DNA of 64,000 nucleotides from Patescibacteria group bacterium (GTDB taxonomy: Bacteria > Patescibacteriota > Patescibacteriia > JAXHNJ01), in the NCBI GenBank assembly GCA_041649715.1, contig JBAZMP010000001.1, positions 515,153 through 579,152 on the forward strand. The letters run 5' to 3'. The notes under the pieces are model-generated. The model saw only the letters and a list, made by a program, of their open reading frames with translations, did not search any database and was not told where the DNA came from. Both the position numbers and the translations under genes were made by a program. This document shows, in pieces, positions 13,147-57,817 of this stretch. The number at the start of each line of letters is the position of its first letter. The stretch's first letter is position 1.

Positions 13147-13194
13147 CTCTACCTCCTCGTTGTTAATCCCCTTTTAAGAAAAGATCAGCCTAAG

Positions 13195-13223
13195 ATATTA
13201 GCATAAGAATATATCTAAGTCAA
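13195..13223 (-). promoter_or_regulatory. Promoter TTGACT-17-TGc-TAATAT
   Basis: 17-bp spacer, extended -10. Confidence 0.55.
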
Positions 13224-29971: not shown

Positions 29972-31470
29972 AACCGGCGGATTTTATAAATAATGACCTG
30001 ATTTAAGGCTTTTTTGGCCAATAAAATACGCTCCCGGTTACGGGCGAACAAGGTGATTAATTTTTCCCCTTTTTCAACGTCATCGCCGATTTTTTGATGC
30101 AGGCGCATGCCCGCTAACTTGTCATTGGGGGCCCCCAAACTACGAGTTACTTCATCGATAGCTCGATTATCGATATCAGTGATCCGCCCCTTGTTATTCG
30201 CGTAAATTCTTAATTTTTGGGCGCCTAGGGTTATGGATTCCGAATCTATTTTATTTTTACCGCCCTGTGCGACTATCATTTCATTCATTTTCTGCCAGGC
30301 TTTACCGGAACATAAAAGGCGCTGGGCCATGGCTTCCCCTTCTCCCGGGCGCGCCCGGCCGCAAAGCTCAAAAAGCTGGCCAGCCAGATATAAAGATTTG
30401 TTTTCCAGATCAAGGGGTCTTTTCTCTTTCTGCTGCAAGACCCGCAAAACATCTCTTGCTTCCAGGGCCGGCCCGATGCCGTTGCCAATCGGCTCTTTCG
30501 CTTCAAGAATGGTCACTTTTAGCTTGATGCCGAATTTATCGCACAGATACTGAAATTTGGCGGCTACCTGGTGAGCGGTGTCTTGATCCTGTATCTTGGC
30601 GGAGGGACCGACGGGAATGTCAATCAAGAGGTATTTGACGCCCATGGCCACCTTTTTGGCCATGATTGAAACGATCATTTTGGACAATGGCTCAAGAGAA
30701 ATATCTTTAGTCAAACGGATGATCATGTCGTCGGCCGGGGCGATATTTGTCGCTCCGCCCCAAACCAAGCAGCCGTTATGTTTAAGCACCAAACGTTCCA
30801 CTTCTTTTAATTTAAAGGTGACGGGAGCCAGAACCTCCATCGTATCAGCCGTGCCGGCCGGTGAGGTGACGGCTCTGGAGGAAGTCTTAGGGATGAAAAG
30901 GCCGGAAGAAGCGATAATCGGGACCACTACCATCGTCGTGCGGTTGCCGGCCAGTCCGCCGACGCAGTGCTTATCCACCACCGTTTTCCCCGTAAAATCT
31001 ATTCTTTCTCCGGTATCAACCATGGCTTTGGTCAAATAAAATAATTCTTCGTCGCTGAATTCATTGGTGAAACCGGAGGCAATAAAAAAGGCCAGCTCAC
31101 AATCACTGATCCGGCCGGCCAGCAGATCCCGAATAATCGTGTACATTTCGTGATAACTCAATGATTCGCCTTTCAGCTTCTTTTTAATCGCCTTGATTGA
31201 GGTCGGGCGGTCGAATAGTTCCAAATAAATGATTTCGTTGTTCCTTATTTTTGTTTTTAGGCTGGTTTCTTTAAACAAACCGATAAATCCCGGAACTATT
31301 TTAGTTTTTGTCGTTTCAATATTAACGACTGCTTCCTTCTTTTGCCAGTTAAGCTCGGTGCGATCGCCGGCCTGCAAACCAAAAATATCGGCGTCTTTTT
31401 CATTGATCATCACCGTCATGGCTTGACCGGATTTAAAATCCATTCTTTTTGCCCTAAGAAAAAACGACAT
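29968..31470 (-). CDS. AMP phosphorylase (thymidine phosphorylase family)
   Basis: Pyrimidine-nucleoside phosphorylase fold with N-terminal extension; sits next to RuBisCO and R15P isomerase. Confidence 0.75.
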   Translation of the reverse strand: MSFFLRAKRMDFKSGQAMTVMINEKDADIFGLQAGDRTELNWQKKEAVVNIETTKTKIVPGFIGLFKETSLKTKIRNNEIIYLELFDRPTSIKAIKKKLKGESLSYHEMYTIIRDLLAGRISDCELAFFIASGFTNEFSDEELFYLTKAMVDTGERIDFTGKTVVDKHCVGGLAGNRTTMVVVPIIASSGLFIPKTSSRAVTSPAGTADTMEVLAPVTFKLKEVERLVLKHNGCLVWGGATNIAPADDMIIRLTKDISLEPLSKMIVSIMAKKVAMGVKYLLIDIPVGPSAKIQDQDTAHQVAAKFQYLCDKFGIKLKVTILEAKEPIGNGIGPALEARDVLRVLQQKEKRPLDLENKSLYLAGQLFELCGRARPGEGEAMAQRLLCSGKAWQKMNEMIVAQGGKNKIDSESITLGAQKLRIYANNKGRITDIDNRAIDEVTRSLGAPNDKLAGMRLHQKIGDDVEKGEKLITLFARNRERILLAKKALNQVIIYKIRRL

Positions 31471-31473
31471 AAG

Positions 31474-32700
31474 TTAGAAATGTTTTAACGCCGTTTCTAA
31501 TTCTTGATGAGTAAGAGAATATTTTTTCAGACTGACATCTTTTTTCACGGCTTCCAAGGCTTGCCTGACCGCCAGCACCCCCGCTCTTGCTCCTTGCGGA
31601 TGGCCGTAAATTCCCCCGCCGAAATTCAAGACAACATCTTTGCCCAGTAAGGAAATAAGCCTGGGGATCAAAGCGGGATGCAGGCCACCGGAAGCAATGG
31701 GGAGGGTCTTTTTTAAGCCATGCCAATTTGAGGTTAAAAAATTATTTATATTTAAAACCTGTTCTCGGCCCCCTTCCATCTTTCCGACAATCGTCCCCGA
31801 ATGCAACTGGTCAACGCCGGCCAAGCGAGCCAGCTTACTTAAGACTAAAATAGATAAACCATGGTGAGACTCTCGCGTGAACGCCGAGTGCATCGCCCGA
31901 TGACCATGGATTATAAGCCCTAAATTTGCCCTTCTTAGGGCAAGAACGCCGGAGAAGCCACAAGTGACTATGTCAATCATCACACACCGTCCGCCGCAGG
32001 TTTTGACGAATCTCGCCCTTTTTATCATCTCGCCGGTCTCGGCCGTGACATTAAAAGCGACCAATTTTCGGGTAGGGCTTGTTTTTTCCACTTTTTTGAC
32101 CAGGGCGAGCGTTTTTACCACTCTTTCCTTGAAAGGGTTGAATTTTTGATCGGTCAAATTTTCGTCGTCTTTGACCAAATCCGCTCCTGCGGATAATACT
32201 TCATAAGCCAGCTGAGCATGCTGGGTGGCCGACAGACCTAATTTAGGCTTCATTATTGACCCGATTAACGGGCGACCTCTGATGCCGGTCAACTTTCTGA
32301 TTTCCTCTAAACCAAAAGCCGGACCAGCGAATGATCTGACGTATTTTCCGGGTAACTCAAAATCCAACAGCTTTAGATGTTTTATTTCCTTAAGACTGTA
32401 GATATTTCCGGCGATAGAAGAGAGCAGTTGGGGTATATTTCCCGGCTCAAACAAATCCAGAGGATAGGCGACTTTGAAGATATTTTTCTTAAAATCAATA
32501 TAATAAACCTTGGCGGCCAACTGGTCAAATTTCTTTTTATTCTGTGTTTTTACTTTTGTCCAAGTACCGATTGATGACTCGGTAGCGATCGCCGCCGCCG
32601 CCTCCCTGTCACCCAGAGAAGAATCAACAAAAAACGTCACAAAAATATTATTTTTGGGGTTGAATTTTTTCCCTAAGGCTAAATAATTCAAATCGTACAT
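31474..32700 (-). CDS. rbcL: RuBisCO large subunit, form II/III-like
   Basis: GADLVKDDE (carbamylated Lys), GGLHP, GGGIYGHPQG. Confidence 0.8.
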   Translation of the reverse strand: MYDLNYLALGKKFNPKNNIFVTFFVDSSLGDREAAAAIATESSIGTWTKVKTQNKKKFDQLAAKVYYIDFKKNIFKVAYPLDLFEPGNIPQLLSSIAGNIYSLKEIKHLKLLDFELPGKYVRSFAGPAFGLEEIRKLTGIRGRPLIGSIMKPKLGLSATQHAQLAYEVLSAGADLVKDDENLTDQKFNPFKERVVKTLALVKKVEKTSPTRKLVAFNVTAETGEMIKRARFVKTCGGRCVMIDIVTCGFSGVLALRRANLGLIIHGHRAMHSAFTRESHHGLSILVLSKLARLAGVDQLHSGTIVGKMEGGREQVLNINNFLTSNWHGLKKTLPIASGGLHPALIPRLISLLGKDVVLNFGGGIYGHPQGARAGVLAVRQALEAVKKDVSLKKYSLTHQELETALKHF

Positions 32701-32701
32701 A

Positions 32702-33619
32702 TTATTTTAGCAAATCCTGATAATGACTTTTAACCAAAAGTCTTATGCCACTTGGTTTTATTAAGCCAAATTCCGTGATAAAAGCGGTAATAAACTTGGC
32801 CGGAATATAATCAAAAGCATAGTTTTCCAGTTTTAGACCCCTTGGGGCTTCCGGCCAAATTTCCCGGCTGCTTCTTTTTTCCAAAGGAATACGAATATTA
32901 ACCCGGCTTTTAGGATCTATTTTTAACAGACTGGTCGCCACGTAAACCGGTATCCTTGATTCCCAGGCCGCGAGCGCCAAACCGAAACTGCCGATCTTAT
33001 TCACGGCCCAGCCGTTCAGACCCACCGCATCGGCTCCGATAATCAATTTATTGATCTTGATGTCATCGCCGGAATGATCGCTTATCAAAAAAGCAGCGGC
33101 GGAATCACATACCTGCGACACTTTTATATGATTTTTGATCAAATTTTTTGCGGTTATTCTACCTTGAAAAAGCGGCCGCGTCTCCGAATTATAAACGTGA
33201 AAATTTTTCCCGTCTTTTCTGGCTTTAACCAATATTTTTTCCACCAGCGAAGAATGGCAATGCGTGAAGATATTTTCCCGGCTTTTTATCAATAAAGACC
33301 CCCTTTTTACGATTTTGGCCTCAATTTCTTCATAAGCCTTTATTAGGCGTTCAACCTCGTTGGTTACACTTTTTCGGTCCAGTGATTTTTTTACCCCTAA
33401 CCTTTTTTCTATTATGCCAAACAGGTTAATGACCAGGGGTTCAGTCGGCCTTCGGCATAAAATGCCATTTTTAAAAAGTTTGATCGATTTGATCGTTTCC
33501 GCCGCCCGTTTTTTAAACGGCATTCCTTTTAATGTCAAAAGAGAGGTTAGAGCGATTTGGCTTGCCCCTTGGATTTTTATTTTTTTTAATTCCCTTAATG
33601 TTCTTTTCCACGTTACCAT
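32702..33619 (-). CDS. Ribose-1,5-bisphosphate isomerase (eIF-2B alpha/beta/delta family)
   Basis: e2b2-fold motifs; 1-nt gap to the RuBisCO gene. Confidence 0.7.
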   Translation of the reverse strand: MVTWKRTLRELKKIKIQGASQIALTSLLTLKGMPFKKRAAETIKSIKLFKNGILCRRPTEPLVINLFGIIEKRLGVKKSLDRKSVTNEVERLIKAYEEIEAKIVKRGSLLIKSRENIFTHCHSSLVEKILVKARKDGKNFHVYNSETRPLFQGRITAKNLIKNHIKVSQVCDSAAAFLISDHSGDDIKINKLIIGADAVGLNGWAVNKIGSFGLALAAWESRIPVYVATSLLKIDPKSRVNIRIPLEKRSSREIWPEAPRGLKLENYAFDYIPAKFITAFITEFGLIKPSGIRLLVKSHYQDLLK

Positions 33620-46600: not shown

Positions 46601-47030
46601 ATTTTAGCAGAATTTTGGCTTTTTGACAACTTGCCGTCTTTTTCAAAAATCAGTTTAGGTGGCTTAAAAGAACCATTTTTATGTAAAAACCAATAACCAA
46701 GAAACAAGAGAAAACAATGTCAATATTCAATATTCAATTTTCAAACTGTTAAGCGGCAAAAAGCGTTTGGTTATTGAGATTTGAAATTTAAATATTATTT
46801 GGAATACTTGTATCTTGTCTCTTGTTTCTTAACCAAAAAGCTGCCTATAAGCTTTGTCAATTTGAGAATGACTGTTCAGTAGCTTTGCTCCAGAAACTTT
46901 TGGTCCCTGAAACAAGAGGAGAGAGATTTGCTATTGCCACAGAAATTCTTGATTTTAGGCTTATAGACAGCTTTCTGTCTTCAATATAGAACACTATTGA
47001 AGAATTTGTCAAGAAGGTTTTTTAAAAGAA

Positions 47031-47101
47031 CCTCGTCTTAAGCTTACTAATTAGATAAATAAGCTTGAGAAGAGGGGGAAGACGCAACAAGGGTCTTCCC
47101 C
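47031..47101. repeat. Array element copy (terminal, degenerate): hp1-like ctcgtcttaagctta...taagcttgagaagag plus GC hairpin ggggaagacgcaacaagggtcttcccc
   Basis: Matches the element consensus and lies after the last array gene. Confidence 0.5.
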
Positions 47102-47112
47102 GCGAACAAGAA

Positions 47113-47553
47113 CTATTCATTGGCCGCTTTCAAAAATTCAGCGGCTTTCTGGACCGCACCCAGGGTCACGGTTTCCCACACTTCAACGCCCTTGAAACCG
47201 AGGCGAACCACTTGATAACCAGTTACTTCGCCCGCGTTGATAATCGGAACGTACCCGATCTCACCGCAGAGCTTCACGCGGCCGAGTCGTATTGCTTCCC
47301 GCCAGGGGAAGAATCGATTCTTTGTCCGACCGAGATATCTGTCTAGGATGATGCCGAGGCTGCGACCGCCCCTGTCTTGCAAACTAATCATAAACAAACT
47401 GTACGGCAGACGACCGTTTTCCCGAAAAAAATCCAGCACCGCCAACGAGAGGACGGCTTTATAATTCTGCAGCTCGCCATTGCTGTAGGAATAGACAAGC
47501 AGCACAAGAACGCAGATCACGGCGAGAATAGCGACGACCATCAAAGCGATCAT
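47113..47553 (-). CDS. Array gene: N-terminally TM-anchored hypothetical protein (146 aa)
   Basis: ORF with RBS. Confidence 0.5.
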   Translation of the reverse strand: MIALMVVAILAVICVLVLLVYSYSNGELQNYKAVLSLAVLDFFRENGRLPYSLFMISLQDRGGRSLGIILDRYLGRTKNRFFPWREAIRLGRVKLCGEIGYVPIINAGEVTGYQVVRLGFKGVEVWETVTLGAVQKAAEFLKAANE

Positions 47554-47596
47554 GACATATTACCTCCGAATCAAGTTGTAACGACATAAAGCAGTA

Positions 47597-47785
47597 TTAG
47601 TCGCGAGGCTTCCACTCCCGGTAAAACACGCTGAAGACAATATATGTCAAAAAGCCGGCATAAAAACACAGGATGGCCGCCCAAAGATTGAATCCCTTAA
47701 GCGCCATAAAGGTCTTAACCGCAGAAATTAGGAACAGAAGCAATACCGCAATCGAGAAATACTTTTTACCTGACATTTCAACCAT
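47597..47785 (-). CDS. Array gene: 62-aa two-TM peptide. No element separates it from the next gene, so the two share one cassette.
   Basis: Hydrophobic profile; 44-nt gap to the next gene with a GGAGG RBS. Confidence 0.45.
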   Translation of the reverse strand: MVEMSGKKYFSIAVLLLFLISAVKTFMALKGFNLWAAILCFYAGFLTYIVFSVFYREWKPRD

Positions 47786-47817
47786 CCCCTTTTGATGATG
47801 TTTCTATGTTTTAAAAG

Positions 47818-47897
47818 ATCCGTCTTAAGCCACAAGATTTTCTTATGACTTAGGAGGGACGGGCGCAGAGCAAGAATAAAAACTTGTCCGCGCCCGG
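47818..47897. repeat. Array element copy (degenerate, variant-2 type)
   Basis: tcttaagccacaag...cttatgacttaggag followed by the hairpin gggcgcagagcaag...cttgtccgcgccc. Confidence 0.45.
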
Positions 47898-47913
47898 GAA
47901 AAAAGGGAATGAA

Positions 47914-48333
47914 CTACTCGTTTTCCCAGGGGTGATAGCAGTAGGCAACCACATAGTCACGCAGATGCCAATCGATGTAGACATCATAGCCGTCAAGCCC
48001 CAGGGCGGAAACGTCGGCCAGGCCGATCTCGCTGCCGTGAAAGGTAATCTTGCGATTGCCCTCGGACAGCACCAGGCTGTTTCGCAAATCTTTTTGGTCA
48101 AAACTATCTAGGACCGTTTCGAAAATCGTCCGGCCATCAGACAGTTTCGCCAGCAAATTTGCCGGCAAAATACTGTTGGTCAGACGGTATTCCTCGCAAG
48201 AGGAAAAGACTTGCTCGGCAATCAGCCGACACTCGTCTGCCTCTTTACTGAGGTTCATATTCGCCGCAAGCATGTACGCCAGGCTTAACACGACGATAAT
48301 GATCACGGTAAGAAGGAAAGTCCGGTAAGACAT
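47914..48333 (-). CDS. Array gene: TM-anchored hypothetical protein (139 aa)
   Basis: GGAGG RBS. Confidence 0.5.
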   Translation of the reverse strand: MSYRTFLLTVIIIVVLSLAYMLAANMNLSKEADECRLIAEQVFSSCEEYRLTNSILPANLLAKLSDGRTIFETVLDSFDQKDLRNSLVLSEGNRKITFHGSEIGLADVSALGLDGYDVYIDWHLRDYVVAYCYHPWENE

Positions 48334-48377
48334 TACTAACCTCCGTTCGCTAAGAATGAATGGTTACTTTCAATGAA

Positions 48378-48447
48378 CTCTCTTGAGCCTGCCAATATTA
48401 ATTGCCAGACTCGAGAGAGCGGGCCAAGACTTGAAGTGCCTGGCCCG
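48378..48447. repeat. Array element, variant 1: CTCTCTTGAGCCTGCCAA-tattaa-TTGCCAGACTCGAGAGAG plus hairpin cgggccaagacttgaagtgcctggcccg
   Basis: Imperfect palindrome plus adjacent GC hairpin. Confidence 0.7.
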
Positions 48448-48482
48448 AAGAACAAATCGCGAATACCGAAACATGACATGTC

Positions 48483-48917
48483 TCAGAACTGTTTGGATGA
48501 TTTAGCAACACATTCAACACCGAACATAATCAGCAGACAGACGGGACCAAAGAATAAGAGAGCGGGGGCTGGCGGATATTGACGTGCGATGAGAATAAGA
48601 ACGCCGGCGACGATGATCAGGAATAAGCCGAAGTAGAACCAGTGCCTGCGATGTCTAAGCGGCCGGTACTTACGCACTGCCGCAACGAGTCCCTCAAGCA
48701 ATTTATTGAAGGCTCCGGCCGCGACGAAGATCAGAAAAAACAGCGCCAAAGCGATCATTTCCCGCTCAATAATGAGAAGAAAAACCCCGCCGGCGAAACA
48801 GAGAAAAACAACGACGCACAGAACCCAGGAAAACGGCATGGCCATCACATAATGCATGGCTATCATCGCCATTACCGTGGCAAACAGACCCAGACACAGC
48901 AGAGCAAAGTGTCTCAT
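48483..48917 (-). CDS. Array gene: four-TM membrane protein (144 aa)
   Basis: Hydrophobic profile. Confidence 0.5.
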   Translation of the reverse strand: MRHFALLCLGLFATVMAMIAMHYVMAMPFSWVLCVVVFLCFAGGVFLLIIEREMIALALFFLIFVAAGAFNKLLEGLVAAVRKYRPLRHRRHWFYFGLFLIIVAGVLILIARQYPPAPALLFFGPVCLLIMFGVECVAKSSKQF

Positions 48918-48968
48918 TTTGCTACCTCCGCAAAGTTAGGGGCGACTTTTTATTGACTACTCAATGTA

Positions 48969-49049
48969 CTCTCTTGAGTCTGCCAAACTAGTGTTTGCCA
49001 AACTCGAGAGAATGGAGGAGAAAAAGAGGAAGACCTCTCCTTCTCCTCC
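48969..49049. repeat. Array element, variant 1, plus hairpin ggaggagaaaaagaggaagacctctccttctcctcc
   Basis: CTCTCTTGAGTCTGCCAA-actagtgt-TTGCCAAACTCGAGAGA. Confidence 0.7.
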
Positions 49050-49068
49050 GTATTTACAGAACGACTTC

Positions 49069-49494
49069 TCAGGGAACGGGCGGCGTGCGATCGATCAGCT
49101 GATCGACGTTTCCGTCACCCCCCAAGACGTAAAGAACATAGCCCGAGGCATGGTTCGGATTTTCCGAAGCCGGCTGATACTTCAGGGCGCCGGGCTGGAA
49201 AATCGAAGTACGGTTGTCCCAGTCGCGCGGCTCGCTGTGACGCAGCGTGTAGGGATTAACCAGCTTCTCGCCCTTGGGCAAGAACTGGACCATCTCCCCT
49301 GCGGTCATGGGATACGTGCTGTGCAAACGGTAATAGGCCGAGAGGGCCTTTTCCGTCTGATCGCAGTTCTGCTTGACGACCTTGTCCACGGCCTGGTCGT
49401 AGTGGTTGAGGGCCGGCGGAAGAACGCCGAAGAAAAGAATGACAACGACAGCGATTGCCGCGACGACGATAGTCGACCTCTGAATTCTGGTCAT
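49069..49494 (-). CDS. Array gene: pilin-fold-like protein (GspG/pseudopilin-like C-terminus) with a plain N-terminal anchor lacking a prepilin cleavage motif
   Basis: NPYTL...YVLYVLGGDGNVD resembles the T2SS-G C-terminal region; no G/F-xxxE motif. Confidence 0.4.
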   Translation of the reverse strand: MTRIQRSTIVVAAIAVVVILFFGVLPPALNHYDQAVDKVVKQNCDQTEKALSAYYRLHSTYPMTAGEMVQFLPKGEKLVNPYTLRHSEPRDWDNRTSIFQPGALKYQPASENPNHASGYVLYVLGGDGNVDQLIDRTPPVP

Positions 49495-49544
49495 CTGGAC
49501 CTCCTCTAACCAGGTTAAGTGAAACTTCGTAACACTCTGCCTTA

Positions 49545-49670
49545 TTTAGCAATTGGCAGCGGCATGATTATTAGCATATGACATATGGCTTATAGCTTAG
49601 AGATAAATTGCTTATCGCAAACCATAAGCCATAAGCTATGTGCCAACTAACAACCAACCCGCTGCCAACC
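49545..49670. mobile_element. Small IR-bounded insert (MITE-like, about 125 bp)
   Basis: Terminal IR aattggcagcggc / gccgctgccaacc; internal IR catatggcttatagc / ataagccataagctatg. Confidence 0.35.
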
Positions 49671-49684
49671 TTTTTGTAATGTGC

Positions 49685-49750
49685 TCTCTTGAGCCTGCCA
49701 ATTTTACTTGCCAGACTCAAGGGAAGGAGAGAAGCGGCTTGCCTCTCTCC
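49685..49750. repeat. Array element, variant 1, plus hairpin ggagagaagcggcttgcctctctcc
   Basis: CTCTCTTGAGCCTGCCAA-ttttac-TTGCCAGACTCAAGGGA. Confidence 0.7.
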
Positions 49751-49762
49751 GATGAATTAGCG

Positions 49763-50110
49763 TTACTTGATAAAGAGCGTGGAAGCTCGTGGCGCGGTCC
49801 GACAACGCATGTAGACGACTTCCGTCACCTTGACTTCCGCTCCATAAAGAATGTTTCGGTACGGGACGACGAACACGGTAAAAAGACAGCGATCACTCCA
49901 TCTCATGACCACGACGACTCCCATATCAAGACCCACCAAGTGTTGTACGTCGCTGAAAGTCGTAAATGAATCATCGGAAGAAAAGTCAGAAACTCTCATA
50001 TGTTTCTGCTCCTGGAGCTGCTTTTGAAGCTCTTCTCCCGTCCGCTGGTGTTTACAACCCGCCGAAAGCGTCAAAACAGCCGCCAGCAGGACAAACAACA
50101 TAGTTCTCAT
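49763..50110 (-). CDS. Array gene: lipoprotein (115 aa)
   Basis: Lipobox LSAGC; GGGAGG RBS. Confidence 0.5.
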   Translation of the reverse strand: MRTMLFVLLAAVLTLSAGCKHQRTGEELQKQLQEQKHMRVSDFSSDDSFTTFSDVQHLVGLDMGVVVVMRWSDRCLFTVFVVPYRNILYGAEVKVTEVVYMRCRTAPRASTLFIK

Positions 50111-50175
50111 CAGGAAACCTCCCTTTCGCTTGAAAGACTTCAAGTATTTACTACTACTCTTAAATTCGCAACGAG

Positions 50176-50245
50176 CTCGCTTGAGCCTGCCAAACTATTA
50201 TTTGTCAGACTCGAGTGAATGGGCCAAACCGAGGAGGTCTGGCCC
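50176..50245. repeat. Array element, variant 1, plus hairpin gggccaaaccgaggaggtctggccc
   Basis: CTCGCTTGAGCCTGCCAA-actattat-TTGTCAGACTCGAGTGA. Confidence 0.7.
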
Positions 50246-50267
50246 AAGGAGCGAAGGTGAAAGAGTC

Positions 50268-50534
50268 TCAGCCTTTAACGGCATGAAACTCTCCCTCATA
50301 TACGAAATAGCGACGAACACACTTCTTGCATTCCAGATAATCAACGGCAACGACTGATTGTGATCCGGTAAATGAATTCTTCATAGCCAGATCACACTTA
50401 GACTCGCGCCAATCCGGACGATGAATACCGGAGCTGGTAATGTGGATCGTGGTCTTGAAAAGGCGTTGCATAATCATCGAAACAACGACCCCCACTATTA
50501 CCAACAAAATAGCAACCAACGCGAACTCTTTCAT
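50268..50534 (-). CDS. Array gene: TM-anchored small protein (about 88 aa)
   Basis: AAGGAGG RBS before MKEFALV. Confidence 0.5.
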   Translation of the reverse strand: MKEFALVAILLVIVGVVVSMIMQRLFKTTIHITSSGIHRPDWRESKCDLAMKNSFTGSQSVVAVDYLECKKCVRRYFVYEGEFHAVKG

Positions 50535-50583
50535 TTCTATCCTCCTTAGAGAGATAAACTCCAGATTTCGATTATTCAATGTG

Positions 50584-50659
50584 CTCTCTTAAATAAACCA
50601 ACAACATTTGATTTACTAAAGAGATGAGGGAACGCACTTCCTATTAAGAAGGGTTCCCT
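50584..50659. repeat. Array element (degenerate hp1) plus hairpin gagggaacgcacttcctattaagaagggttccctc
   Basis: ctctcttaaataaaccaa...ttgatttactaaagagatgag. Confidence 0.5.
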
Positions 50660-50670
50660 CGGTTGTGCGA

Positions 50671-51060
50671 TTATTTCAGGACGATCACGGCCGAGAGGAT
50701 CCATTCCTCGTAGCCTTCGCCTTCCCCAGAACATCTGGTAAAGGCGACGATGGTCCCATTCTTCCCGTTGACCAGGGCGTAGACCACCGGATTATCGAGC
50801 TTCCCGTCATAGAGAAGACCGGCGCTGTCGTAGACTCGGACAGTGGAGCTGTCGTCGATGTACGAAGTTCCGTCGTAGAAAATCTCGATGGTTCTGGATC
50901 GCTCGTAGGCCGGCTTTTCCGACTTCATGGTAATCTCGCCGGTGCCACCCCAGATGTGCTTGTCGACTTTGATGTTGACCGGGGGCCCGGCGAAGCTGTT
51001 GCTGCCCGCGAACGGAAGCATGACCACGAGGATCATGATAACGAGCATGAACTTTTTCAC
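50671..51060 (-). CDS. Array gene: secreted protein; probable GTG start giving MKKFMLVIM
   Basis: Signal peptide; GGAG RBS 7 nt before the GTG. Confidence 0.45.
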   Translation of the reverse strand: MKKFMLVIMILVVMLPFAGSNSFAGPPVNIKVDKHIWGGTGEITMKSEKPAYERSRTIEIFYDGTSYIDDSSTVRVYDSAGLLYDGKLDNPVVYALVNGKNGTIVAFTRCSGEGEGYEEWILSAVIVLK

Positions 51061-51130
51061 GCTTGGCTCCTTTCGGTAAAACTGATCTTCTGCCATCTTA
51101 GGCTGGCAGACGCCCTTACTAGTCAAAGAA

Positions 51131-51199
51131 CTCCCTCTTAAGCCAACCAGAGATGCCTGATTGACTTGAGAGAGAGGGACGTTTTTTAGGAAACGTCCC
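51131..51199. repeat. Array element, variant 2: CTCTTAAGCCAACCA-gagatgcc-TGATTGACTTGAGAG plus hairpin gggacgttttttaggaaacgtccc
   Basis: Lies inside a roughly 105-nt block nearly identical to 52715-52830. Confidence 0.7.
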
Positions 51200-51312
51200 G
51201 CGTATTTCAGTTCACGGCCCGCCAGCCGGTGGTTTTTTAAGGTGGTGTCACATCTCCACCGGACTAGGCATGACTTATTCCACTCCCCTCTTTTATAAGA
51301 TATCAGCGACGG

Positions 51313-51753
51313 TCAGGCCTGACGCTTAATCCACCAAGCGGACAGGAAGAATACGATCGCAAATAGTCCGGAAATACACGCCAGAAATATGAATGAATAA
51401 CGCTCCCACCGGAATACCGCAATCAAGGAAATCAAACAGATAAACGCTTCGACTATCCCGAAGAGGCACTGCCGTGTCGGCAAATCTTGCTTGGCCTTGC
51501 TGAAAATGCCGGCAATCATCCCAAAGATTCCCAACAAGAAAAAGAGAATCGTCATGATGATGCCCAAGAAGGCAAAAAACAGCCACTCGAGAATGTCGCG
51601 CTCGACGTAGACGATCACGACACCTCCTCCGACGATTAGAACTCCAATCGTCAGAAGCCAGGGATCGAACCCAGGCATGTAGTGCAGGACCACGACGCCG
51701 CACGTGATCGCCACAATCCCGAGAACAAAGATAATGATGCTTTTCATCACCAA
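51313..51753 (-). CDS. Array gene: four-TM membrane protein, paralog A
   Basis: Shares VVVLxxMxGFDPWLLxIGVL with 52873..53328. Confidence 0.55.
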   Translation of the reverse strand: MVMKSIIIFVLGIVAITCGVVVLHYMPGFDPWLLTIGVLIVGGGVVIVYVERDILEWLFFAFLGIIMTILFFLLGIFGMIAGIFSKAKQDLPTRQCLFGIVEAFICLISLIAVFRWERYSFIFLACISGLFAIVFFLSAWWIKRQA

Positions 51754-51790
51754 CCTCCAGGTTTATAGCCTTTTTGATTCAAAGATCTAA

Positions 51791-51857
51791 CTCTCTTAAG
51801 CCAACCAATGTTTGATTGACTTGAGAGAATGGAGGGACCCACGGGGTGGATCCCTCC
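51791..51857. repeat. Array element, variant 2, plus hairpin ggagggacccacggggtggatccctcc
   Basis: CTCTCTTAAGCCAACCAA-tgtt-TGATTGACTTGAGAGA. Confidence 0.7.
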
Positions 51858-51873
51858 GGAACGAACGTAGTGG

Positions 51874-52443
51874 CTAGGCCGCTGCCCCCACCTTCTGGCG
51901 CGCCTCCTGCGGATAGTAGACGCGCAGGTCCCGGCTGCCGATGTTGGCGAGATTCGCGATGTCAGCGCAGTGGTAAAAGCCCACAGCCCTGGCCGCAGTC
52001 CGGGAGAGAATGACGATCCGACCATCGGTCAGAGCGGCATCCATGAAGGCGGCACCGGCGGTCTTGAGCACGCAGCAGGTAAGCTCCTTGTCGCGGAGCT
52101 CGAGAACGCTGCCCGTGTGGACACCTTCGCCGTCGATCCAGCACACTTGCCCTTTGGGAAGCGGCGGGAACGGCACGGCGAGGAGCGCCTTCACCCTCGC
52201 GACGATCTGTTCGTCGGAAAGCCAGCCTTCCGGCTTAGGCGGCAACGTTCTGACGTTGCGGGCCTGCGGTTTCCCATCGAGGGCGTTGATCGGTTCGAAG
52301 ACGACCTCCTCCCCGATCTTCCAGTACTGCCGGCAGCTCGACGCGATGGCCCAGTTGGGCACATAGCGGTCGACGCCATTTTCGTCGGTGATGAAGGAAT
52401 ACACGGCGCCGATTGACTTGACCTTACCATTCATCTGAGACAT
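51874..52443 (-). CDS. Array gene: protein with N-terminal cold-shock-domain-like segment plus about 130-aa extension
   Basis: MSQMNGKVKSIGAVYSFITDENGVDRYV compared with the CspA pattern GxVKWFNxxKGFGFITxxxGxDVFV; AAGGAGG RBS. Confidence 0.45.
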   Translation of the reverse strand: MSQMNGKVKSIGAVYSFITDENGVDRYVPNWAIASSCRQYWKIGEEVVFEPINALDGKPQARNVRTLPPKPEGWLSDEQIVARVKALLAVPFPPLPKGQVCWIDGEGVHTGSVLELRDKELTCCVLKTAGAAFMDAALTDGRIVILSRTAARAVGFYHCADIANLANIGSRDLRVYYPQEARQKVGAAA

Positions 52444-52495
52444 GAGAGACCTCCTTTTCCGAAGCACCTTGGAACACTGTGACTTCTTTCTTGAG

Positions 52496-52660
52496 CCACC
52501 TCACTGGAGGTGAGGCTAAATTGGGAGCTTTCATTAGAAAATGAAAGGCCTGAAAGGATAATCGAGTGAATGACTTAGTAGACCAAGCCAGACGCTTAAA
52601 TTATCCTCAATCGATTGTCCCCGTTAGAAATTTATTTCTAATGGGATGTCTCACCCTCCA
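52496..52660. mobile_element. MITE copy A (about 165 bp), hairpin-ended, with a 28-bp palindromic internal insert
   Basis: Ends gccacctcactggaggtgagg / tcaccctccatggaggtggc; the internal about 75 nt is identical to copy B. Confidence 0.6.
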
Positions 52661-52693
52661 TGGAGGTGGCTAAGAAAAATTTTAGTCAAAGAA

Positions 52694-52761
52694 CTCTCTC
52701 TTAAGCCAACCAATTTACTTGATTGACTTGAGAGAGAGGGACGTTTTTTAGGAAACGTCCC
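52694..52761. repeat. Array element, variant 2, plus hairpin gggacgttttttaggaaacgtccc
   Basis: CTCTCTCTTAAGCCAACCAA-tttact-TGATTGACTTGAGAGAGAG. Confidence 0.7.
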
Positions 52762-52872
52762 GCGTATTTCAGTTCACGGCCCGCCGGCCGGTGGTTTTTT
52801 AAGGTGGTGTCACATCTCCACCGAACTAGTCTTAGTCATTAACACCCCTCTTTTGCAGATTTTGGCGCCGGA

Positions 52873-53328
52873 TTATACCCGTGACATCCGGCGGTTGTTC
52901 CTCCTGCCGATGGTCAGGCAATACAGAGCGACCAGGGCGAAGGGCACTCCAAGGATGAAAATGATGGTATAGAGCGGGTGCCCCCAGTACAGAAGGCCGA
53001 CTGTGATGTCGTATAGGCCGATCAGACCATATGTCCAACTGAAGATTCGCCAATTGCTGTCCAGGAAGCGTCTGACTGGCCGCGACCAGGCGACCATTTT
53101 CTCCATGCCTTTCAAGAGGACATAGAGGATCGCGAAGATGATGCCGAGAAAGATAAAGAAATCCTCCTCAAGAACATCGCTCACAGCGTAAGTCAGGCTG
53201 ACACCACCGGCGATGCAGAGGACTCCGATCACCAGAAGCCAGGGATCGAACCCCGACATATGGCGCAGGACGACGACGCCGACCACGATCGCGATCATAC
53301 CCATAACGAACAGCATGTTGTTCCGCAT
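52873..53328 (-). CDS. Array gene: four-TM membrane protein, paralog B
   Basis: Paralog of 51313..51753; GGAGG RBS. Confidence 0.55.
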   Translation of the reverse strand: MRNNMLFVMGMIAIVVGVVVLRHMSGFDPWLLVIGVLCIAGGVSLTYAVSDVLEEDFFIFLGIIFAILYVLLKGMEKMVAWSRPVRRFLDSNWRIFSWTYGLIGLYDITVGLLYWGHPLYTIIFILGVPFALVALYCLTIGRRNNRRMSRV

Positions 53329-53631
53329 TACAAACCTCCATTAGAGTTAGATGACTAGTTTCGTTTGAAAAATCAAAGTGCTTTATCATTTTCTGAAAGC
53401 ACTAATCTATTAATGCTTTCGGAAAAGTCAGGGAGGCCGATGAAACGCATTTCATCAAAACCTCCCTGGATAGTTTTACCCATCTCGGGTCACCCCGGAT
53501 GGAACCCAGCCGCCCATTTGTTGGCCGGGGTTGAGGCTAGAGTGTTCGCAGGAGGCGAAGCACCCATAGCCCGTGATGGACCAGGTTTTTCACCTGTCCA
53601 CCTCCTTTCTTTTATGATTTAAAGAGCTTCG

Positions 53632-53781
53632 CTAGCTGATCACGATGCAGCAGGAAATCCCGAGAATCCCCAGCACCGTAGGCACAAAGCCAAGCGCCGG
53701 ATGGCCGGAATGCATAATCGCCTTCCCCGCGATAAAGCATAGCAGGGAAACGACGAGTAACGGGCCAAGGTGCTTTTTCAT
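53632..53781 (-). CDS. Unannotated 49-aa two-TM membrane peptide (MKKHLGPLLVVSLLCFIAGKAIMHSGHPALGFVPTVLGILGISCCIVIS)
   Basis: GGAGGGAAGAA RBS with ideal spacing; below the 60-aa ORF-track cutoff; a more plausible reading than the overlapping 53612..53800 ORF. Confidence 0.5.
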   Translation of the reverse strand: MKKHLGPLLVVSLLCFIAGKAIMHSGHPALGFVPTVLGILGISCCIVIS

Positions 53782-53824
53782 TTCTTCCCTCCGAGTTCAA
53801 GACGTATAACGTATAAAGATCGTT

Positions 53825-53904
53825 CCTCTCTTGAAAGTCCTAAATCTTTAAGGCTTTTAAGAGAGGGCTCGGCAAAGAAGGTAGAACAAGTTGATGACCG
53901 AGCC
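53825..53904. repeat. Array element (divergent) plus hairpin gctcggcaaagaaggtagaacaagttgatgaccgagcc
   Basis: cctctcttgaaagtcc-taaatctttaa-ggcttttaagagagg. Confidence 0.55.
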
Positions 53905-53961
53905 TTTTAACGAGCGGATTTTGAGGTGGGATACCGGTTAGGGTGACCGGTGGCGGGAAAA

Positions 53962-54576
53962 TCAGGCAAAGACCATCATTCTTTGGCGGTATTCTATCCG
54001 AAGCATGAAGGCAACCACCAGAAGAGTCGTAACTGTCGCCCGAGTGGCATAGAGAACGGCTAGACTGTCGCCGTCAATCAGGGCCGGATAGAGGGCGATG
54101 AGCATTGCGATGCCCGTTCCGATCCAGACTGAGAACGGCTCGGTGTTTTTTGGCGACGTCCACAAATGCTGGAGGGTAGCGATGTAACCGATGACCACCA
54201 GCAGCTGAGTGAGAACGTTCGACCAGGAGGCCTGGCGGAACATCATCCAGAATAGGATGATTCCCGCGGCCGCAACAAGCGTGCCTTTCTGAAACCGGCT
54301 GAAAGCCAGCTTCAGTTCTCCGTCACGGTATCTCGTCCAGAGGACGAAGAAACAAATGACAGAGGTATTGAGAACGCCAGTCGCGTTGCCGACGTTGCCG
54401 GTCCAGCTGTGAACCGGCGAACGCATGTAGGTGATAAAACCGAGGATCATCGTCAAGCTGATAATAATCCAGGTCGCCGGCACAGGATGCTTGGCCCGGG
54501 TGTTAATCAGATAGCAGTATCTGATAGTCACACCGAACATGATCAAAGCGACGAGAATAACCGACAGTTCTCTCAT
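53962..54576 (-). CDS. Array gene: multi-TM membrane protein (about 204 aa)
   Basis: GAGGTG RBS before MRELSVIL; 5-6 TM. Confidence 0.5.
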   Translation of the reverse strand: MRELSVILVALIMFGVTIRYCYLINTRAKHPVPATWIIISLTMILGFITYMRSPVHSWTGNVGNATGVLNTSVICFFVLWTRYRDGELKLAFSRFQKGTLVAAAGIILFWMMFRQASWSNVLTQLLVVIGYIATLQHLWTSPKNTEPFSVWIGTGIAMLIALYPALIDGDSLAVLYATRATVTTLLVVAFMLRIEYRQRMMVFA

Positions 54577-54805
54577 TTCACACCTCAACTTTTTTAATTC
54601 AATGTGCATTGAAATTCTGGTGGCGGCGAGGGAGTTTAACCCTACTTTTTCAAGTCCCGATCGCCTTGCTAGGCAGGACTTCTCATCCTCTTTTTGTCGG
54701 GACGCCGCCTTTTTCAAACTAATGAATCTTGATCATAAGCTTGAAAAAGGTGAAGAGTCAGATAGTCCGTACTAACTGACTCTTCGCGCGTAGGAACCCT
54801 TGGCT

Positions 54806-55054
54806 TCAGAGACTCAGTCTCTTTTTGCCCTTGTTGTAGCCGGCGACTTGCTTCATCGCCTTGATTTTCTCCAGGAACGAAAGCCGCGGGTCTTTCGGCA
54901 CCAGATCCGTGTTGCCGAGAACATAGATAACGGCCGAAAGAAAATCCTCCAACGTAATCTCGTAGTCGCCGAGATATACGACCTGAGGACCGAAACCATC
55001 GGTCTTAACCGATAGTCCCTCCGGCTTGCTTCCCTGATTTAGGATCAAACTCAT
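54806..55054 (-). CDS. Array gene: small soluble hypothetical protein (about 83 aa)
   Basis: GGGAGG RBS before MSLILNQG. Confidence 0.45.
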   Translation of the reverse strand: MSLILNQGSKPEGLSVKTDGFGPQVVYLGDYEITLEDFLSAVIYVLGNTDLVPKDPRLSFLEKIKAMKQVAGYNKGKKRLSL

Positions 55055-55100
55055 GATTTTCCTCCCTTCAGCATGTGTTATTCTGTCCGATGTAAGGTGC

Positions 55101-55168
55101 TCGCTTGAGCCAACCAAGGACAAGCTTTGATTGACTTAAGTGAGGGAGGGATCCAGGGGGATCCCTCC
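55101..55168. repeat. Array element, variant 2, plus hairpin gggagggatccagggggatccctcc
   Basis: CTCGCTTGAGCCAACCAA-ggacaagct-TTGATTGACTTAAGTGAG. Confidence 0.7.
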
Positions 55169-55190
55169 GTTGTTTTGGACTTTCGTCCGG

Positions 55191-55772
55191 TTAGAACGAG
55201 CAGATGAGCGCGAACCAGCGTTCATTGGTGTCCCCGAGTTTGAACGCGGCGCACAGTCTGGCCGAGCTGAAGGGCCCGACCTTGCCGAGTTCGACGAATG
55301 GGCCGACCCGCGGGTTCAGAGCCTCATCACCGTTCTTGGTGAGATGGCCGATCAGACCGACGGGGAAAGTTCCGCACGTGATCCATTCCCGAAGCAACAG
55401 GAAATTCGGCGCGCCGTGCTGTCCAAACTGCATCAGATCATAGCTCTGCCAGTGTATCGGACCGAAATCCAGGCCGAAGCTTGCGTCGAAGTTCACGTAC
55501 ATGACGCCGATCTTGTCGCCGCCGATATCGCCGAAGCTCAAGCCAGATCCGAACTGGAACGGACCGATCTTGGGTCCGACCGAGAAAGCGACCTCGGTCC
55601 CCGGCGTCGTCCAGATATTGCATCCGAGACGGGGAATGAAAAGAGAGTCTCTGCCCGCGCAACCGAACAGGTTGCCCGTCGGGTAGAACTCGACCGAGGC
55701 GTAGGAACCGGCCAAGCAGACCGCCGGAACCATGAGGATCAGGATAAGCGTGATGAGCATGAACGACTTCAT
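55191..55772 (-). CDS. Array gene: secreted Gly-rich protein (about 193 aa)
   Basis: Signal peptide MKSFMLITLILILMVPAVCLA; AGGAGG RBS. Confidence 0.5.
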   Translation of the reverse strand: MKSFMLITLILILMVPAVCLAGSYASVEFYPTGNLFGCAGRDSLFIPRLGCNIWTTPGTEVAFSVGPKIGPFQFGSGLSFGDIGGDKIGVMYVNFDASFGLDFGPIHWQSYDLMQFGQHGAPNFLLLREWITCGTFPVGLIGHLTKNGDEALNPRVGPFVELGKVGPFSSARLCAAFKLGDTNERWFALICSF

Positions 55773-55819
55773 CGCGAACCTCCTTAAGGCTACAGAGTTT
55801 GGGAACACCCTTCTTCTTC

Positions 55820-55964
55820 GCCACCTCACTGGAGGTGAGGCTAATATGGCAACTTCCACTAGAAAGTGAAAGGCCTGAAAGGATAATCGAGTGAATGACT
55901 TAGTAGACCAAGCCAGACGCTTAAATTATCCTCAATCGATTGTCTCACCCTCCATGGAGGTGGC
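55820..55964. mobile_element. MITE copy B (about 145 bp)
   Basis: Same hairpin ends and internal sequence as copy A. Confidence 0.6.
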
Positions 55965-55995
55965 GAAAAAATGTATAAATGTAAAGGACTTTTTT

Positions 55996-56063
55996 CTCGC
56001 TTGAGCCTGTCAATCTTTTGTTGGCAGACTCGAGTGAGGGGCCAAGACTTAGGAAGCTTGGCC
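55996..56063. repeat. Array element, variant 1, plus hairpin ggggccaagacttaggaagcttggccc
   Basis: CTCGCTTGAGCCTGTCAA-tcttttg-TTGGCAGACTCGAGTGAG. Confidence 0.7.
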
Positions 56064-56085
56064 CAGAAATCTTCTGGAACGAACG

Positions 56086-56430
56086 CTAGCCTCTAAACAC
56101 GTGGAAGTAAGCTTGGTTCACATCAGGAAGAAGCGCTCTGAACACGACTTCATCGTGACGGATGATCTGAATCGCCACAATGGAACAATTATCGATGTTC
56201 AGTATCACCTCTTCGCCTACGTCGACCCTTGGCAGACCGTCAGCCGGAATCACATATCCCTTGCCGTTAACCTTTAGGCTAAGGACGCTATGGAAGCCAG
56301 ACGAAGGCTCGTGCAAGTCCAAGCTTGCTTCTTCTACGACACCGCGTATGACCGTTTCTGTGACAGGTTCACGCTCTTCATACCCAATCTCGCCCATTCT
56401 GTAAACTCTAGTTACTTCCGATATCTTCAT
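56086..56430 (-). CDS. Array gene: small soluble hypothetical protein (about 114 aa)
   Basis: AAGGAG RBS before MKISEVT. Confidence 0.45.
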   Translation of the reverse strand: MKISEVTRVYRMGEIGYEEREPVTETVIRGVVEEASLDLHEPSSGFHSVLSLKVNGKGYVIPADGLPRVDVGEEVILNIDNCSIVAIQIIRHDEVVFRALLPDVNQAYFHVFRG

Positions 56431-56464
56431 CGCCTGCTCCTTTATATAAAGATCTCCTTCCAAA

Positions 56465-56523
56465 GCACTAGTACTTTACTAATGCCTTCGAGAGAGAGGG
56501 CCAAGCCACGAAGGCTTGACCCG
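56465..56523. repeat. Array element (left arm degenerate) plus hairpin gggccaagccacgaaggcttgaccc
   Basis: ...CCTTCGAGAGAGA plus a GC hairpin. Confidence 0.45.
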
Positions 56524-56553
56524 TATGTACGAACGGCGGAAACGCCGGTGTCG

Positions 56554-56781
56554 CTAGATATGCCTGGTAACAAAACGACCCACCAGAGCGATGACGAACC
56601 AGATCGCGAGACAGAAAACGACGTAACCGATCAAGGCGATCGCGATGGCCCCGTAAAAGGCCGGGATCACGATGAGCAAGCGCAGAATGTCGTTTCCGTT
56701 CACGAACTGGATCTTGAGGATCTGGGGGCCGAGAAGAGCGAATAGAATACAGATAATGGTAATCACGATAAACCACTTCAT
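56554..56781 (-). CDS. Array gene: 75-aa two-TM peptide (first gene of the array)
   Basis: GGAGG RBS; hydrophobic profile. Confidence 0.5.
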   Translation of the reverse strand: MKWFIVITIICILFALLGPQILKIQFVNGNDILRLLIVIPAFYGAIAIALIGYVVFCLAIWFVIALVGRFVTRHI

Positions 56782-56814
56782 TTCTGACCTCCGTTTTTTA
56801 TGACCTTCTCAAAG

Positions 56815-56891
56815 ATCTCCTTCTAAGACACTAACCATTGGCTAATGTCCTTGAGAGAGAGGGCAACCATCCGACAGAGTCGTGGTTGCCC
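56815..56891. repeat. Array element (degenerate, upstream of the first gene) plus hairpin gggcaaccatccgacagagtcgtggttgccc
   Basis: ...TCCTTGAGAGAGAG plus a GC hairpin. Confidence 0.45.
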
Positions 56892-57817
56892 AGGCTATCA
56901 CTCATCATTCGCTATGCGATAACTTGATATGATAGAAGGAACGATATGAAAGAGCGAAATTATCGCCAGGTGAATATTTTCATTCATGAATCCACGGGGG
57001 ATTCAATATGAAGACGCTTGCTATTGTCAGGACAATCAAGCGGAGGTGAGATTAAAAGTGGTATCTTCTCAAGCTTTCGCAAAGAGAAGGCCTAAAGGCG
57101 AAGCGCTTGGAGAGGTCGAGTGAAACCCAACCTCGCAAGCCTCTACGCCCAAATAATATCTTTCTCACCCTCCCCTTGACTGTTCTGAAATATTTTTATT
57201 TTGTCGAAGGACTGATGCGGGAGAAGAGGAGGCACTAAGGCCTCCTCCCCTACCGTCTGCTCTGTAAGATCTTACAGAGGAAGTTGGAAGCTAAATTTTC
57301 ATTACCGACCAACTTCCTCTTTACGATCCTTACGAAAAAAGACCCTTCCACATTTGAGAGAGTCTATTCAATCGATTTATAAACAAAACATATGTCTATA
57401 AATCACCGATTCAAAAAATCGGTACTCTCTCCTCATATTAAGTTGTCAAAGTCTCCTCTCCTTTAAGACCTTGTTCTCTCTCCTATTTCTAGCTTGACAC
57501 CTCACTATATAGGGGGGTGGTTTTCTTGTCAAGGGGGGTTATCCCCACCTCTGGCAATTTTGACCTAATCTTAGGTAAAATTAATTCTAAAAAATATCCT
57601 TAAATATTAATTTTTGACGGTTTTTGACCTATTTTTTGCCGCAAAAAAAACAGCCATTTTTAGCCTTTTGTGGATAACTGGCAAAACTCAAACAAACGGG
57701 AGTTTTGCCACCCTGAGCGAAGTCTCGCTAAGCGGGACAAGCGAAGGGTCTTACATTAAAATATATTGCCCCGTGTTTGCGAATGGATCCCGAATAAGAC
57801 AGAGAGTCTAGTCGATT

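Follow-up and report, generated by a model that had tools for sequence, protein, structure and literature searches.

Integrons are defined by IntI and the AAC/GTT core, and clusters of attC sites without an integrase are known as CALINs. To our knowledge, no well-understood system other than integrons recombines DNA by shape and not by sequence. Within an attC site the R box comprises R'' and R' with a conserved AAC/GTT triplet (RYYYAAC...GTTRRRY), compensatory changes preserve a stem whose base is conserved in sequence, the recombined strand shows a G:T asymmetry, and the bottom strand is the better-folding, G:T-enriched one (PMC5027507). The searchable literature on integrons or attC sites in Patescibacteria (CPR) yielded nothing comparable to the array of gene cassettes described here. 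We propose, with a probability of roughly 45%, that the repeated modules of this array are structure-specific recombination sites of an integron-like cassette platform, which would be folded on the top strand.

The window, i.e. the whole stretch of 64 kb that was analysed, is part of a Patescibacteria (CPR) MAG (ENA ERZ27247363, contig k141_3042223). Its array, counted by reading and folding, consists of 17 complete and co-oriented modules on the minus strand (47031-56890), lies between a DUF4012 gene and murJ-lepA in surroundings of cell-envelope genes, and has a G+C content of 50-53% compared to 41-47% around it. The original prediction had described an imperfect palindrome with an abutting second hairpin. 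Both are real and belong to the larger set of 17 modules. In the element concerned (E3, 48378-48447, minus strand) the imperfect palindrome of 42 nt, CTCTCTTGAGCCTGCCAA-TATTAA-TTGCCAGACTCGAGAGAG in plus-strand orientation, occupies positions 48378-48419 and is directly abutted by a GC hairpin of 28 nt (48420-48447). All 17 palindromes have a GC hairpin that begins 0-2 nt beyond. The 12-nt left-arm pattern occurs 11 times, with 0.3 occurrences expected, and the full degenerate palindrome 5 times, with 0 expected. Read on the gene (minus) strand, a module of ∼75-105 nt follows the stop codon mostly after 12-35 nt and runs from the GC hairpin (stem of 7-16 bp) through the 18-bp imperfect palindrome and a further 0-18 nt to a YWCWTTGA motif, for example TTCTTTGA, ATCTTTGA or CACATTGA. 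Another ∼20-40 nt lead to the ribosome-binding site and start codon of the next gene, and in most cases the module ends ∼30-50 nt before this start codon. The single-stranded motif 3' of the palindrome, where the homology between copies stops, had been missed by the original prediction, as had the cassette context: the modules are the 3' ends of apparently promoterless cassettes whose gene content turns over.

E1 (47031-47100; palindrome 47031-47075, GC hairpin 47076-47100), with which the array ends, has GTTCTTTTAAAAAACCTTC behind it on the sense strand, and next a TTGACA promoter. E2 (47819-47896; palindrome and hairpin, in this order here and below, 47819-47859 and 47860-47896) is homologous to the last module of two related loci, L008 and L014. 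Beyond E3, and likewise on the minus strand, lie E4 (48969-49049; 48969-49012 and 49014-49049), E5 (49684-49750; 49684-49725 and 49726-49750), E6 (50176-50246; 50176-50219 and 50220-50246), E7 (50584-50657; 50584-50628 and 50629-50657), E8 (51131-51198; 51131-51176 and 51177-51198), E9 (51791-51857; 51791-51829 and 51831-51857) and E10 (52694-52760; 52694-52738 and 52739-52760). E11 (53389-53468; 53389-53427 and 53429-53468) and E13 (54708-54785; 54708-54750 and 54752-54785) are of diverged arm types, the latter without a clear downstream motif, and E12 (53825-53905; 53825-53866 and ∼53866-53905) is homologous to positions 1557-1655 of the related locus L010. The array continues with E14 (55100-55168; 55100-55144 and 55145-55168), E15 (55996-56064; 55996-56038 and 56039-56064) and E16 (56453-56521; 56453-56498 and 56499-56521) up to E17 (56816-56890; 56816-56861 and 56862-56890), the first module after the leader. 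E17 is conserved with positions 2587-2680 of the related locus L009, and this homology stops after GAGATCTTTGAGAAGG.

Contrary to the prediction of a second hairpin that differs in almost every copy, the GC hairpins fall into families that are co-inherited with the palindrome type, such as GGGCCAAG in E3, E6, E15 and E16 or GGAGGGATCC in E9 and E14. Since these families travel with palindrome types behind unrelated genes, the idea that the GC hairpin is the native terminator of a captured gene is weakened. Within the array, the segment 51120-51294 with E8 is a 91% duplicate of 52683-52854 with E10, and the similarity of the two copies is lost right after GTTCTTTGACTA. The ORFs 51313-51747 and 52873-53328 are paralogous multi-pass membrane-protein cassettes with ∼70% identity in their coding parts and 91-98% identity in 3' UTR and module (51120-51294 and 52683-52854). 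A 3' UTR and module of this type also follows an unrelated ORF in L009 (4978-5130).

A covariance model built from 12 module copies matched the window inside the array alone, except for one match of 9.7 bits (E=3.2), and in every case its best matches were those to the minus strand; in murJ loci from other Patescibacteria (874 kb) it had none. Pair statistics were taken from the model-based alignment, as a MAFFT alignment of 30 copies set several rows out of register. In the model alignment 88.3% of cells were paired, compared to 76.4% in shuffles, and 16 of 18 stem pairs were changed on both sides. The covariation score of 0.424 (0.218 in shuffles) was reached by none of 500 shuffles and fell to at most 0.14 once the register was slid. 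Each of the inner positions 11-14 shows 5-7 different standard pair types across the copies. The predicted self-complementarity of co-varying arms is thus borne out, and so is the conservation of the non-pairing positions, since non-Watson-Crick pairs recur at positions 7, 11 and 15. On the sense strand these are C.A at position 7 in 11 of 23 copies, T.G at position 11 in 10 of 23, and at position 15 T.G in 15 of 23 and G.G in 3 of 23. The arms align free of gaps, and the irregularities are mismatches at these three positions and not bulges.

Instead of two arm variants, at least eight arm sequence types were found within the window. The outer arms had been predicted to be conserved in sequence, which holds for the CTCTCTC/GAGAGAG base of the stem in the window, with inner arms kept in structure only; in the relatives, however, the outer arms covary as well (TTTTCC/GGAAAA-like, CCTACC/GGTAGG and ATTTTTT/AAAAAAT). 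The module is therefore conserved in secondary structure rather than in sequence. The loop is variable in length as predicted, with a measured range of 3-9 nt instead of 4-9 nt, and its variability does argue against a double-stranded core site with a fixed spacer. Double-stranded sites for a dimeric protein, either a repressor operator or a Xer/dif-like recombinase core, could account for the dyad symmetry and the conserved outer half-sites, and a Xer-like recombinase is present in the genome. Still, the inner arms are wholly different between copies in one genome while each remains self-complementary, and together with the variable spacer this diversity means that one protein cannot read all sites as duplex DNA, which makes such sites extremely improbable. 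A Xer/dif core in the strict sense, with two conserved arms of 11 bp and a fixed spacer of 6-8 bp, was rejected on account of the loop of 3-9 nt and of inner arms that are unrelated between copies.

The mispairs are unequally distributed between the strands. The gene strand has 52 G.T-type and 27 A.C-type pairs (2.26 versus 1.17 per site) and is the richer in G.T at 16 sites versus 2 (binomial p=0.007, for copies that are not independent of each other). Folding of both strands, a check that the original prediction had proposed, also favoured the gene strand, by 2.7 kcal/mol in MFE for the palindrome (p=0.06) and by 1.8 kcal/mol for the GC hairpin (p=0.03). Hence the hint that the minus (coding) strand matters has been strengthened, and the bias toward the gene strand is moderate. 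As judged from sequence, RNA and ssDNA readings appear to fit alike: the strand bias leaves RNA and single-stranded DNA unseparated, because the recombined strand of attC sites has a like G:T asymmetry (PMC5027507).

The strongest rival to recombination sites is a role at the RNA level. Tandem hairpins would then act in the polycistronic mRNA only, in processing, stability or insulation, and turnover would come about by homologous recombination or transformation that uses the modules as homology. The stem of 18-20 bp would be an RNase III-type processing or protein-binding site, the GC hairpin a 3' stabiliser of the upstream message, and the U-rich YWCWUUGA a single-stranded cleavage or entry site. 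We regard this as possible, though rather unlikely. In agreement with it, the transcribed strand folds better and contains twice as many G.U-type pairs, a single promoter must serve 17 genes across a 10-kb transcript, and the modules hold a constant position between cistrons. The stem length suits RNase III, and the module form, an 18-bp stem with mismatches, would be compatible with an RNase III site of ∼20-bp irregular duplex. Furthermore, the locus is rich in sense-strand structured RNAs, namely a leader RNA with 17/34 compensatory pairs and a distal sRNA-like unit. However, a pure RNA role leaves unexplained how unrelated genes each came by a module that sits at a set distance behind the stop codon, and why the rest of the 64 kb and 874 kb of related loci are free of modules. 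Nor does it account for the C.A mismatch that persists at position 7 of the RNA strand, or for the completeness of the two outermost modules, of which the last precedes no gene and the first follows none; and the G.T asymmetry is also a trait of ssDNA attC sites (PMC5027507).

The 16 gene-bearing cassettes contain 17 small ORFs of 49-204 aa, all on the minus strand (47113-56781), with a module-to-module spacing of 363-903 bp; ORFs of 62 aa and 146 aa share one cassette. No Pfam, NCBIfam or PHROG family was found above threshold for any of the 17, and homologue searches with the 189-aa and 139-aa proteins returned only themselves. According to the translations, 14 of these proteins begin with a hydrophobic or signal segment, and one of the 14 also has a lipobox; one of the 17 is faintly similar to pseudopilins. 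The proteins encoded at 49069-49494, 47914-48333 and 47113-47553 start with a hydrophobic helix followed by pseudopilin-like motifs, as do those at 80-487 of L014 and 5089-5517 of the related locus L091, the latter beginning with KGFTLLT. None of the pilin hints reaches its threshold (T2SSG E=0.018, GspG E=0.007, and N_methyl E=0.029 in L091), and pilin cargo was not accepted as identified on such similarity. These hints would suit an array that may store alternative pilin-like surface proteins.

Only two sites on the gene strand match the sigma-70 consensus at 11/12, and they bracket the array. The array promoter TTGACA-17-TATAGT (57532-57504, minus strand) reads into the cassettes and is conserved in L009, L091 and a further related locus, L012, and the distal-boundary promoter TTGACA-18-TATATT (47012-46983, minus strand) lies just past the array. 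None of the 17 module hairpins is followed by a T-run on the gene strand; CTCTCTC follows each. With one upstream promoter and hairpins that lack T-runs, the cassette genes therefore look promoterless and co-transcribed. A sigma-54 or sigma-70 promoter within the palindrome was dismissed, because the spacings are unfit and no -10 element follows. Intrinsic terminators or attenuators that make each gene its own transcription unit would likewise agree with GC-rich stems of 7-16 bp located 12-35 nt after stop codons. This explanation is highly unlikely given 0 of 17 hairpins with a T-run on the gene strand, no internal promoters of comparable quality, and stand-alone CPR homologues that use ordinary T-run terminators. 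These homologues belong to one cassette family (193 aa), whose members in other CPR genomes stand alone, each transcribed from a promoter of its own and ended by a T-run terminator.

Small ORFs that belong to no known family also form a second island in the window (8500-13200, both strands, G+C ∼49%). Each of these ORFs is preceded by a repeated promoter-like box, e.g. TTGTCAAGACCTAATT, several have ordinary T-run terminators, and the island contains no palindrome modules. In another part of the window (29968-33619, minus strand), RuBisCO large-subunit-like, IF-2B-family and nucleoside phosphorylase-like genes adjoin each other, a set that suggests a nucleoside salvage pathway.

Relatives of the same locus in other metagenomes (the loci with L numbers) were found via homologues of MurJ, with identities of 88% for L008 and L014, 73% for L009, 71% for L091, 66% for L010, 63% for L012 and 56% for L015. 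L009, L091 and L010 carry arrays, and the loci of L008 and L014 are partial. These loci have in common the promoter, a leader with CTTTGA followed by GAGGAGAGAG, a structured RNA, an E17-type first module, further modules built alike, and a conserved RNA before murJ. Apart from a single homologue (44%) in L008, none of the 17 proteins of the window was found at the five loci, L009 and L010 encoding none at all, and in an all-against-all blastn comparison shared segments were confined to modules, leader and RNAs. Between L008 and L014 the palindrome is 100% identical and the hairpin similar, the genes upstream of the hairpin are unrelated, and 7-16 nt between palindrome and flank differ. A cassette that L008 lacks (the 62-aa and 146-aa ORFs with E1) is placed in the window exactly between the E2-type module and the flank. 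Related genomes thus share the modules and the position of the locus and differ in the cassettes that they carry there. In L012 the leader and distal RNA are present and modules are absent. In L015 DUF4012 abuts murJ with no array in between, and the array is therefore an insertion. A gene for a 23S rRNA intervening-sequence protein (PF05635) was noticed in the two closest relatives, L008 (980-1438) and L014 (∼900-1330), on the minus strand of those loci, where it separates the sRNA-like unit from murJ; the window lacks this gene. The exact degenerate palindrome pattern had 0 matches in genome, metagenome and viral contig collections, and a synteny search of genome contigs with the DUF4012 protein gave no relatives.

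This distribution also bears on the idea that the module is a selfish non-autonomous element (MITE-, REP- or IS200/IS605-end-like) that was repeatedly inserted between the genes of an older operon. A compact unit of ∼75-105 nt with hairpins and a short 3' motif does resemble single-strand transposon ends, and the modules form sequence families. Nevertheless, it is the genes that vary between genomes and not the modules, no copies lie outside the array, each gene unit has a single copy and all of these point the same way, and the window ORFs that were scanned yielded no HUH, TnpA or RAYT gene. We consider a selfish element improbable. The predicted likeness to REP or IS200/IS605 elements did not hold for the same reasons: a single array contains all copies, and a HUH or RAYT gene was not found in the window.

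The array is framed by two conserved RNA elements. At its proximal end, the leader motif CTTTGA (57446-57451, minus strand) is followed by GAGGAGAGAG at 57425-57434, and both are conserved in L009, L091 and L012. This leader segment (57425-57451) is a hairpin-less copy of the module 3' motif and a candidate for an attI-like primary site. Further into the leader lies a structured RNA-like element (57038-57192, minus strand), of which copies are found in cassette 5' UTRs (55806-55972 and 52486-52682, minus strand) and in the relatives L009 (2288-2436 and 5128-5316) and L091 (3958-4100 and 4878-5022). There is always one copy in the array leader, with the others in cassette 5' UTRs. The element is ∼145-195 nt long, has a P1 stem of GGAGGGUGA/UCUCACCUCC and conserved UGGUCUGACU, UUAGGCC and GCCAA, and 17 of its 34 predicted pairs are compensatory across 7 copies. 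It has no match in Rfam, its conserved word had 0 matches in the viral contig collection, and it could be a cis-regulatory or antitermination leader. In the leader region of the L091 array a tRNA-like segment was seen (4118-4200), with a GGTTCGATTCC T-loop and an acceptor-like stem GGCGGC.../...GCCGCC.

At the distal array boundary (46833-47012, minus strand), between array and murJ, the promoter is followed by a conserved sRNA-like unit of ∼150 nt that ends in a long closing stem and a T-run, with 12 of 29 predicted pairs compensatory and an invariant unpaired AAAUCUCUCUCCUCUUG. Its unpaired CUCUCUCCUC (46916-46925) is complementary to the leader GAGGAGAGAG and partly complementary to the GAGAGAG arms of the palindromes. 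The unit is also found in L008 (616-800), L014 (600-782), L009 (6203-6400), L091 (6520-6712) and L010 (∼5470-5672). Rfam scans at gathering and relaxed thresholds returned only three tRNAs and chance miRNA-like matches; Rfam holds no attC family.

If the modules are recombination sites, as we favour, each of these 3'-terminal pieces of promoterless gene cassettes would be a functional analogue of the integron attC, read on the top (gene, window-minus) strand. The crossover would be placed at the single-stranded YWCWTTGA, 0-18 nt 3' of the 18-bp hairpin, because the inter-copy homology ends there. Cassettes are stacked at one chromosomal site, DUF4012-murJ, behind a single strong promoter, with the leader CTTTGA as putative hairpin-less primary site, and by gain, loss and reshuffling related strains come to have different sets of small envelope proteins. 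The data show the architecture, the covariation and the turnover of cassettes at a fixed locus with shared modules; we infer both the function as recombination substrate and the action as folded top-strand ssDNA, and the enzyme can be named only as a candidate. This is a Xer-like tyrosine recombinase (5748-6725, plus strand), the only one found in the 64-kb window, 41 kb from the array. It scores 69.9 bits on the integron-integrase model TIGR02249, which has a cut-off of 265, and 179-203 bits on the XerC, XerD and XerA models (XerC 203), all below the cut-offs. It would be a candidate enzyme, with no link to the array. More tentatively, the locus may represent a non-IntI gene-capture platform of a Patescibacteria clade, situated between leader RNA and sRNA gene, in which cassettes for small envelope proteins, some of them pilin-like, are swapped via top-strand tandem-hairpin sites, with the junction at single-stranded YWCWTTGA and the lone Xer-like or another enzyme as catalyst.

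Several features support the platform: one co-oriented module per cassette, 17 in all; a stem that is kept like that of attC by compensatory change with a stem base kept by sequence (PMC5027507); bracketing promoters, conservation of the locus, and unrelated genes behind the palindrome shared by L008 and L014; the extra cassette relative to L008, the direct contact of DUF4012 and murJ in L015, the G+C content of the array, and the stand-alone CPR homologue; and modules that are confined to the array and have a G.T excess on one strand, as on the recombined strand of attC (PMC5027507). Other features count against it. No recombinase adjoins the array, AAC/GTT core, R stem and extrahelical bases are absent, and it is the transcribed strand that folds better, as an RNA role would equally explain. 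The cassette that comes first (leader RNA and E17) is conserved between genomes, unlike the newest cassette next to attI, and turnover could proceed via homologous recombination between repeated modules. Moreover, no excision product, empty site or rearrangement within the population was seen, and the two assemblies of this population are identical.

What would be new here is a cassette platform that resembles an integron but has tandem-hairpin sites of a non-canonical kind and lacks IntI in the 64-kb window, a proposal to which, mechanism included, we give somewhat less than even odds. If it is true, it would suggest that the capture of cassettes by structure arose repeatedly in evolution, or else that its age and spread have been greatly underestimated. 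It would also reveal how ultrasmall bacteria that live attached to hosts and have reduced genomes diversify their surface proteins, and new sequence-independent recombination sites may become available as tools. Should the hairpins prove to be RNA elements, there is still a clear hypervariable island of cassettes here, along with two structured RNAs not described before, in a phylum that is poorly understood.

Among known systems, the ends of IS200/IS605 and REP/RAYT elements and the nic sites of relaxase oriT, all handled by HUH enzymes, resemble the modules as imperfect hairpins recognised in single-stranded form, with a cut expected in a short motif a few nt 3' of the stem. They differ in that the window has no HUH gene, no pair of left and right ends and no GTAG, and IS200/IS605 and REP/RAYT copies are dispersed instead of lying in one array; as to REP/BIME with RAYT, copies were found in the array alone and no HUH domain among the scanned ORFs of the window. 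The RNase III hairpins of phage T7 early and late mRNAs are likewise irregular, mismatched stems of ∼20 bp between the genes of a long transcript and leave a 3' hairpin on the upstream message, as the modules may do. However, they are not tied to the turnover of unrelated genes, and they are not tandem hairpins with a conserved 3' motif. Xer modules (IMEX, Acinetobacter pdif) also consist of genes bounded by short imperfect palindromes, with a recombinase encoded elsewhere, but dif-type sites have an 11-6-11 bp layout with fixed spacer and conserved arms, whereas the arms here are 18 bp long and kept inside in structure only, around a loop of 3-9 nt.

A close likeness in architecture exists to integron gene cassettes and their attC sites, above all those of sedentary chromosomal integrons and CALINs. 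A site that is recognised as a folded single strand, as originally predicted, is reasonable for DNA or RNA, but it is neither a canonical attC nor REP- or IS200/IS605-like. Pairs of RYYYAAC...GTTRRRY were absent from both strands of 47000-56999 (0 versus 1.8 expected by chance), and module flanks paired no better (-4.6 kcal/mol) than mismatched-partner controls (-4.2 kcal/mol). Without R''/R' cores a canonical attC is ruled out, as is an outer stem or four-way junction by flank pairing equal to that of controls; the predicted attC likeness fails in its canonical form, with RYYYAAC...GTTRRRY pairs, outer R stem and bulged bases all missing. The modules thus stand outside the attC family. Unlike attC sites, with their extrahelical bases, unpaired central spacer and nested variable terminal structure, they have neither R box nor AAC/GTT core, and mismatches in place of extrahelical bases; a separate GC hairpin beside the stem takes the place of the nested structure, and the junction seems to fall within a single-stranded motif beyond the 3' end of the stem. 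The top strand is favoured where attC sites have a G:T-enriched bottom strand, no IntI adjoins the array, whose flanks are DUF4012 and MurJ, or occurs in the 64-kb window, and the host phylum is Patescibacteria. In common with integrons, tandem and co-oriented promoterless cassettes of ∼0.4-0.9 kb, mostly ORFans, follow one promoter, and each ends in one 3' imperfect palindrome that is conserved in structure over sequence, with a sequence-conserved stem base. Likewise shared are site families behind unrelated genes, G.T mispairs on one strand, and a cassette content that varies among close relatives at the same platform. The logic of the platform, which combines a fixed position and turnover with a structure-conserved terminal module and one promoter, is that of an integron.
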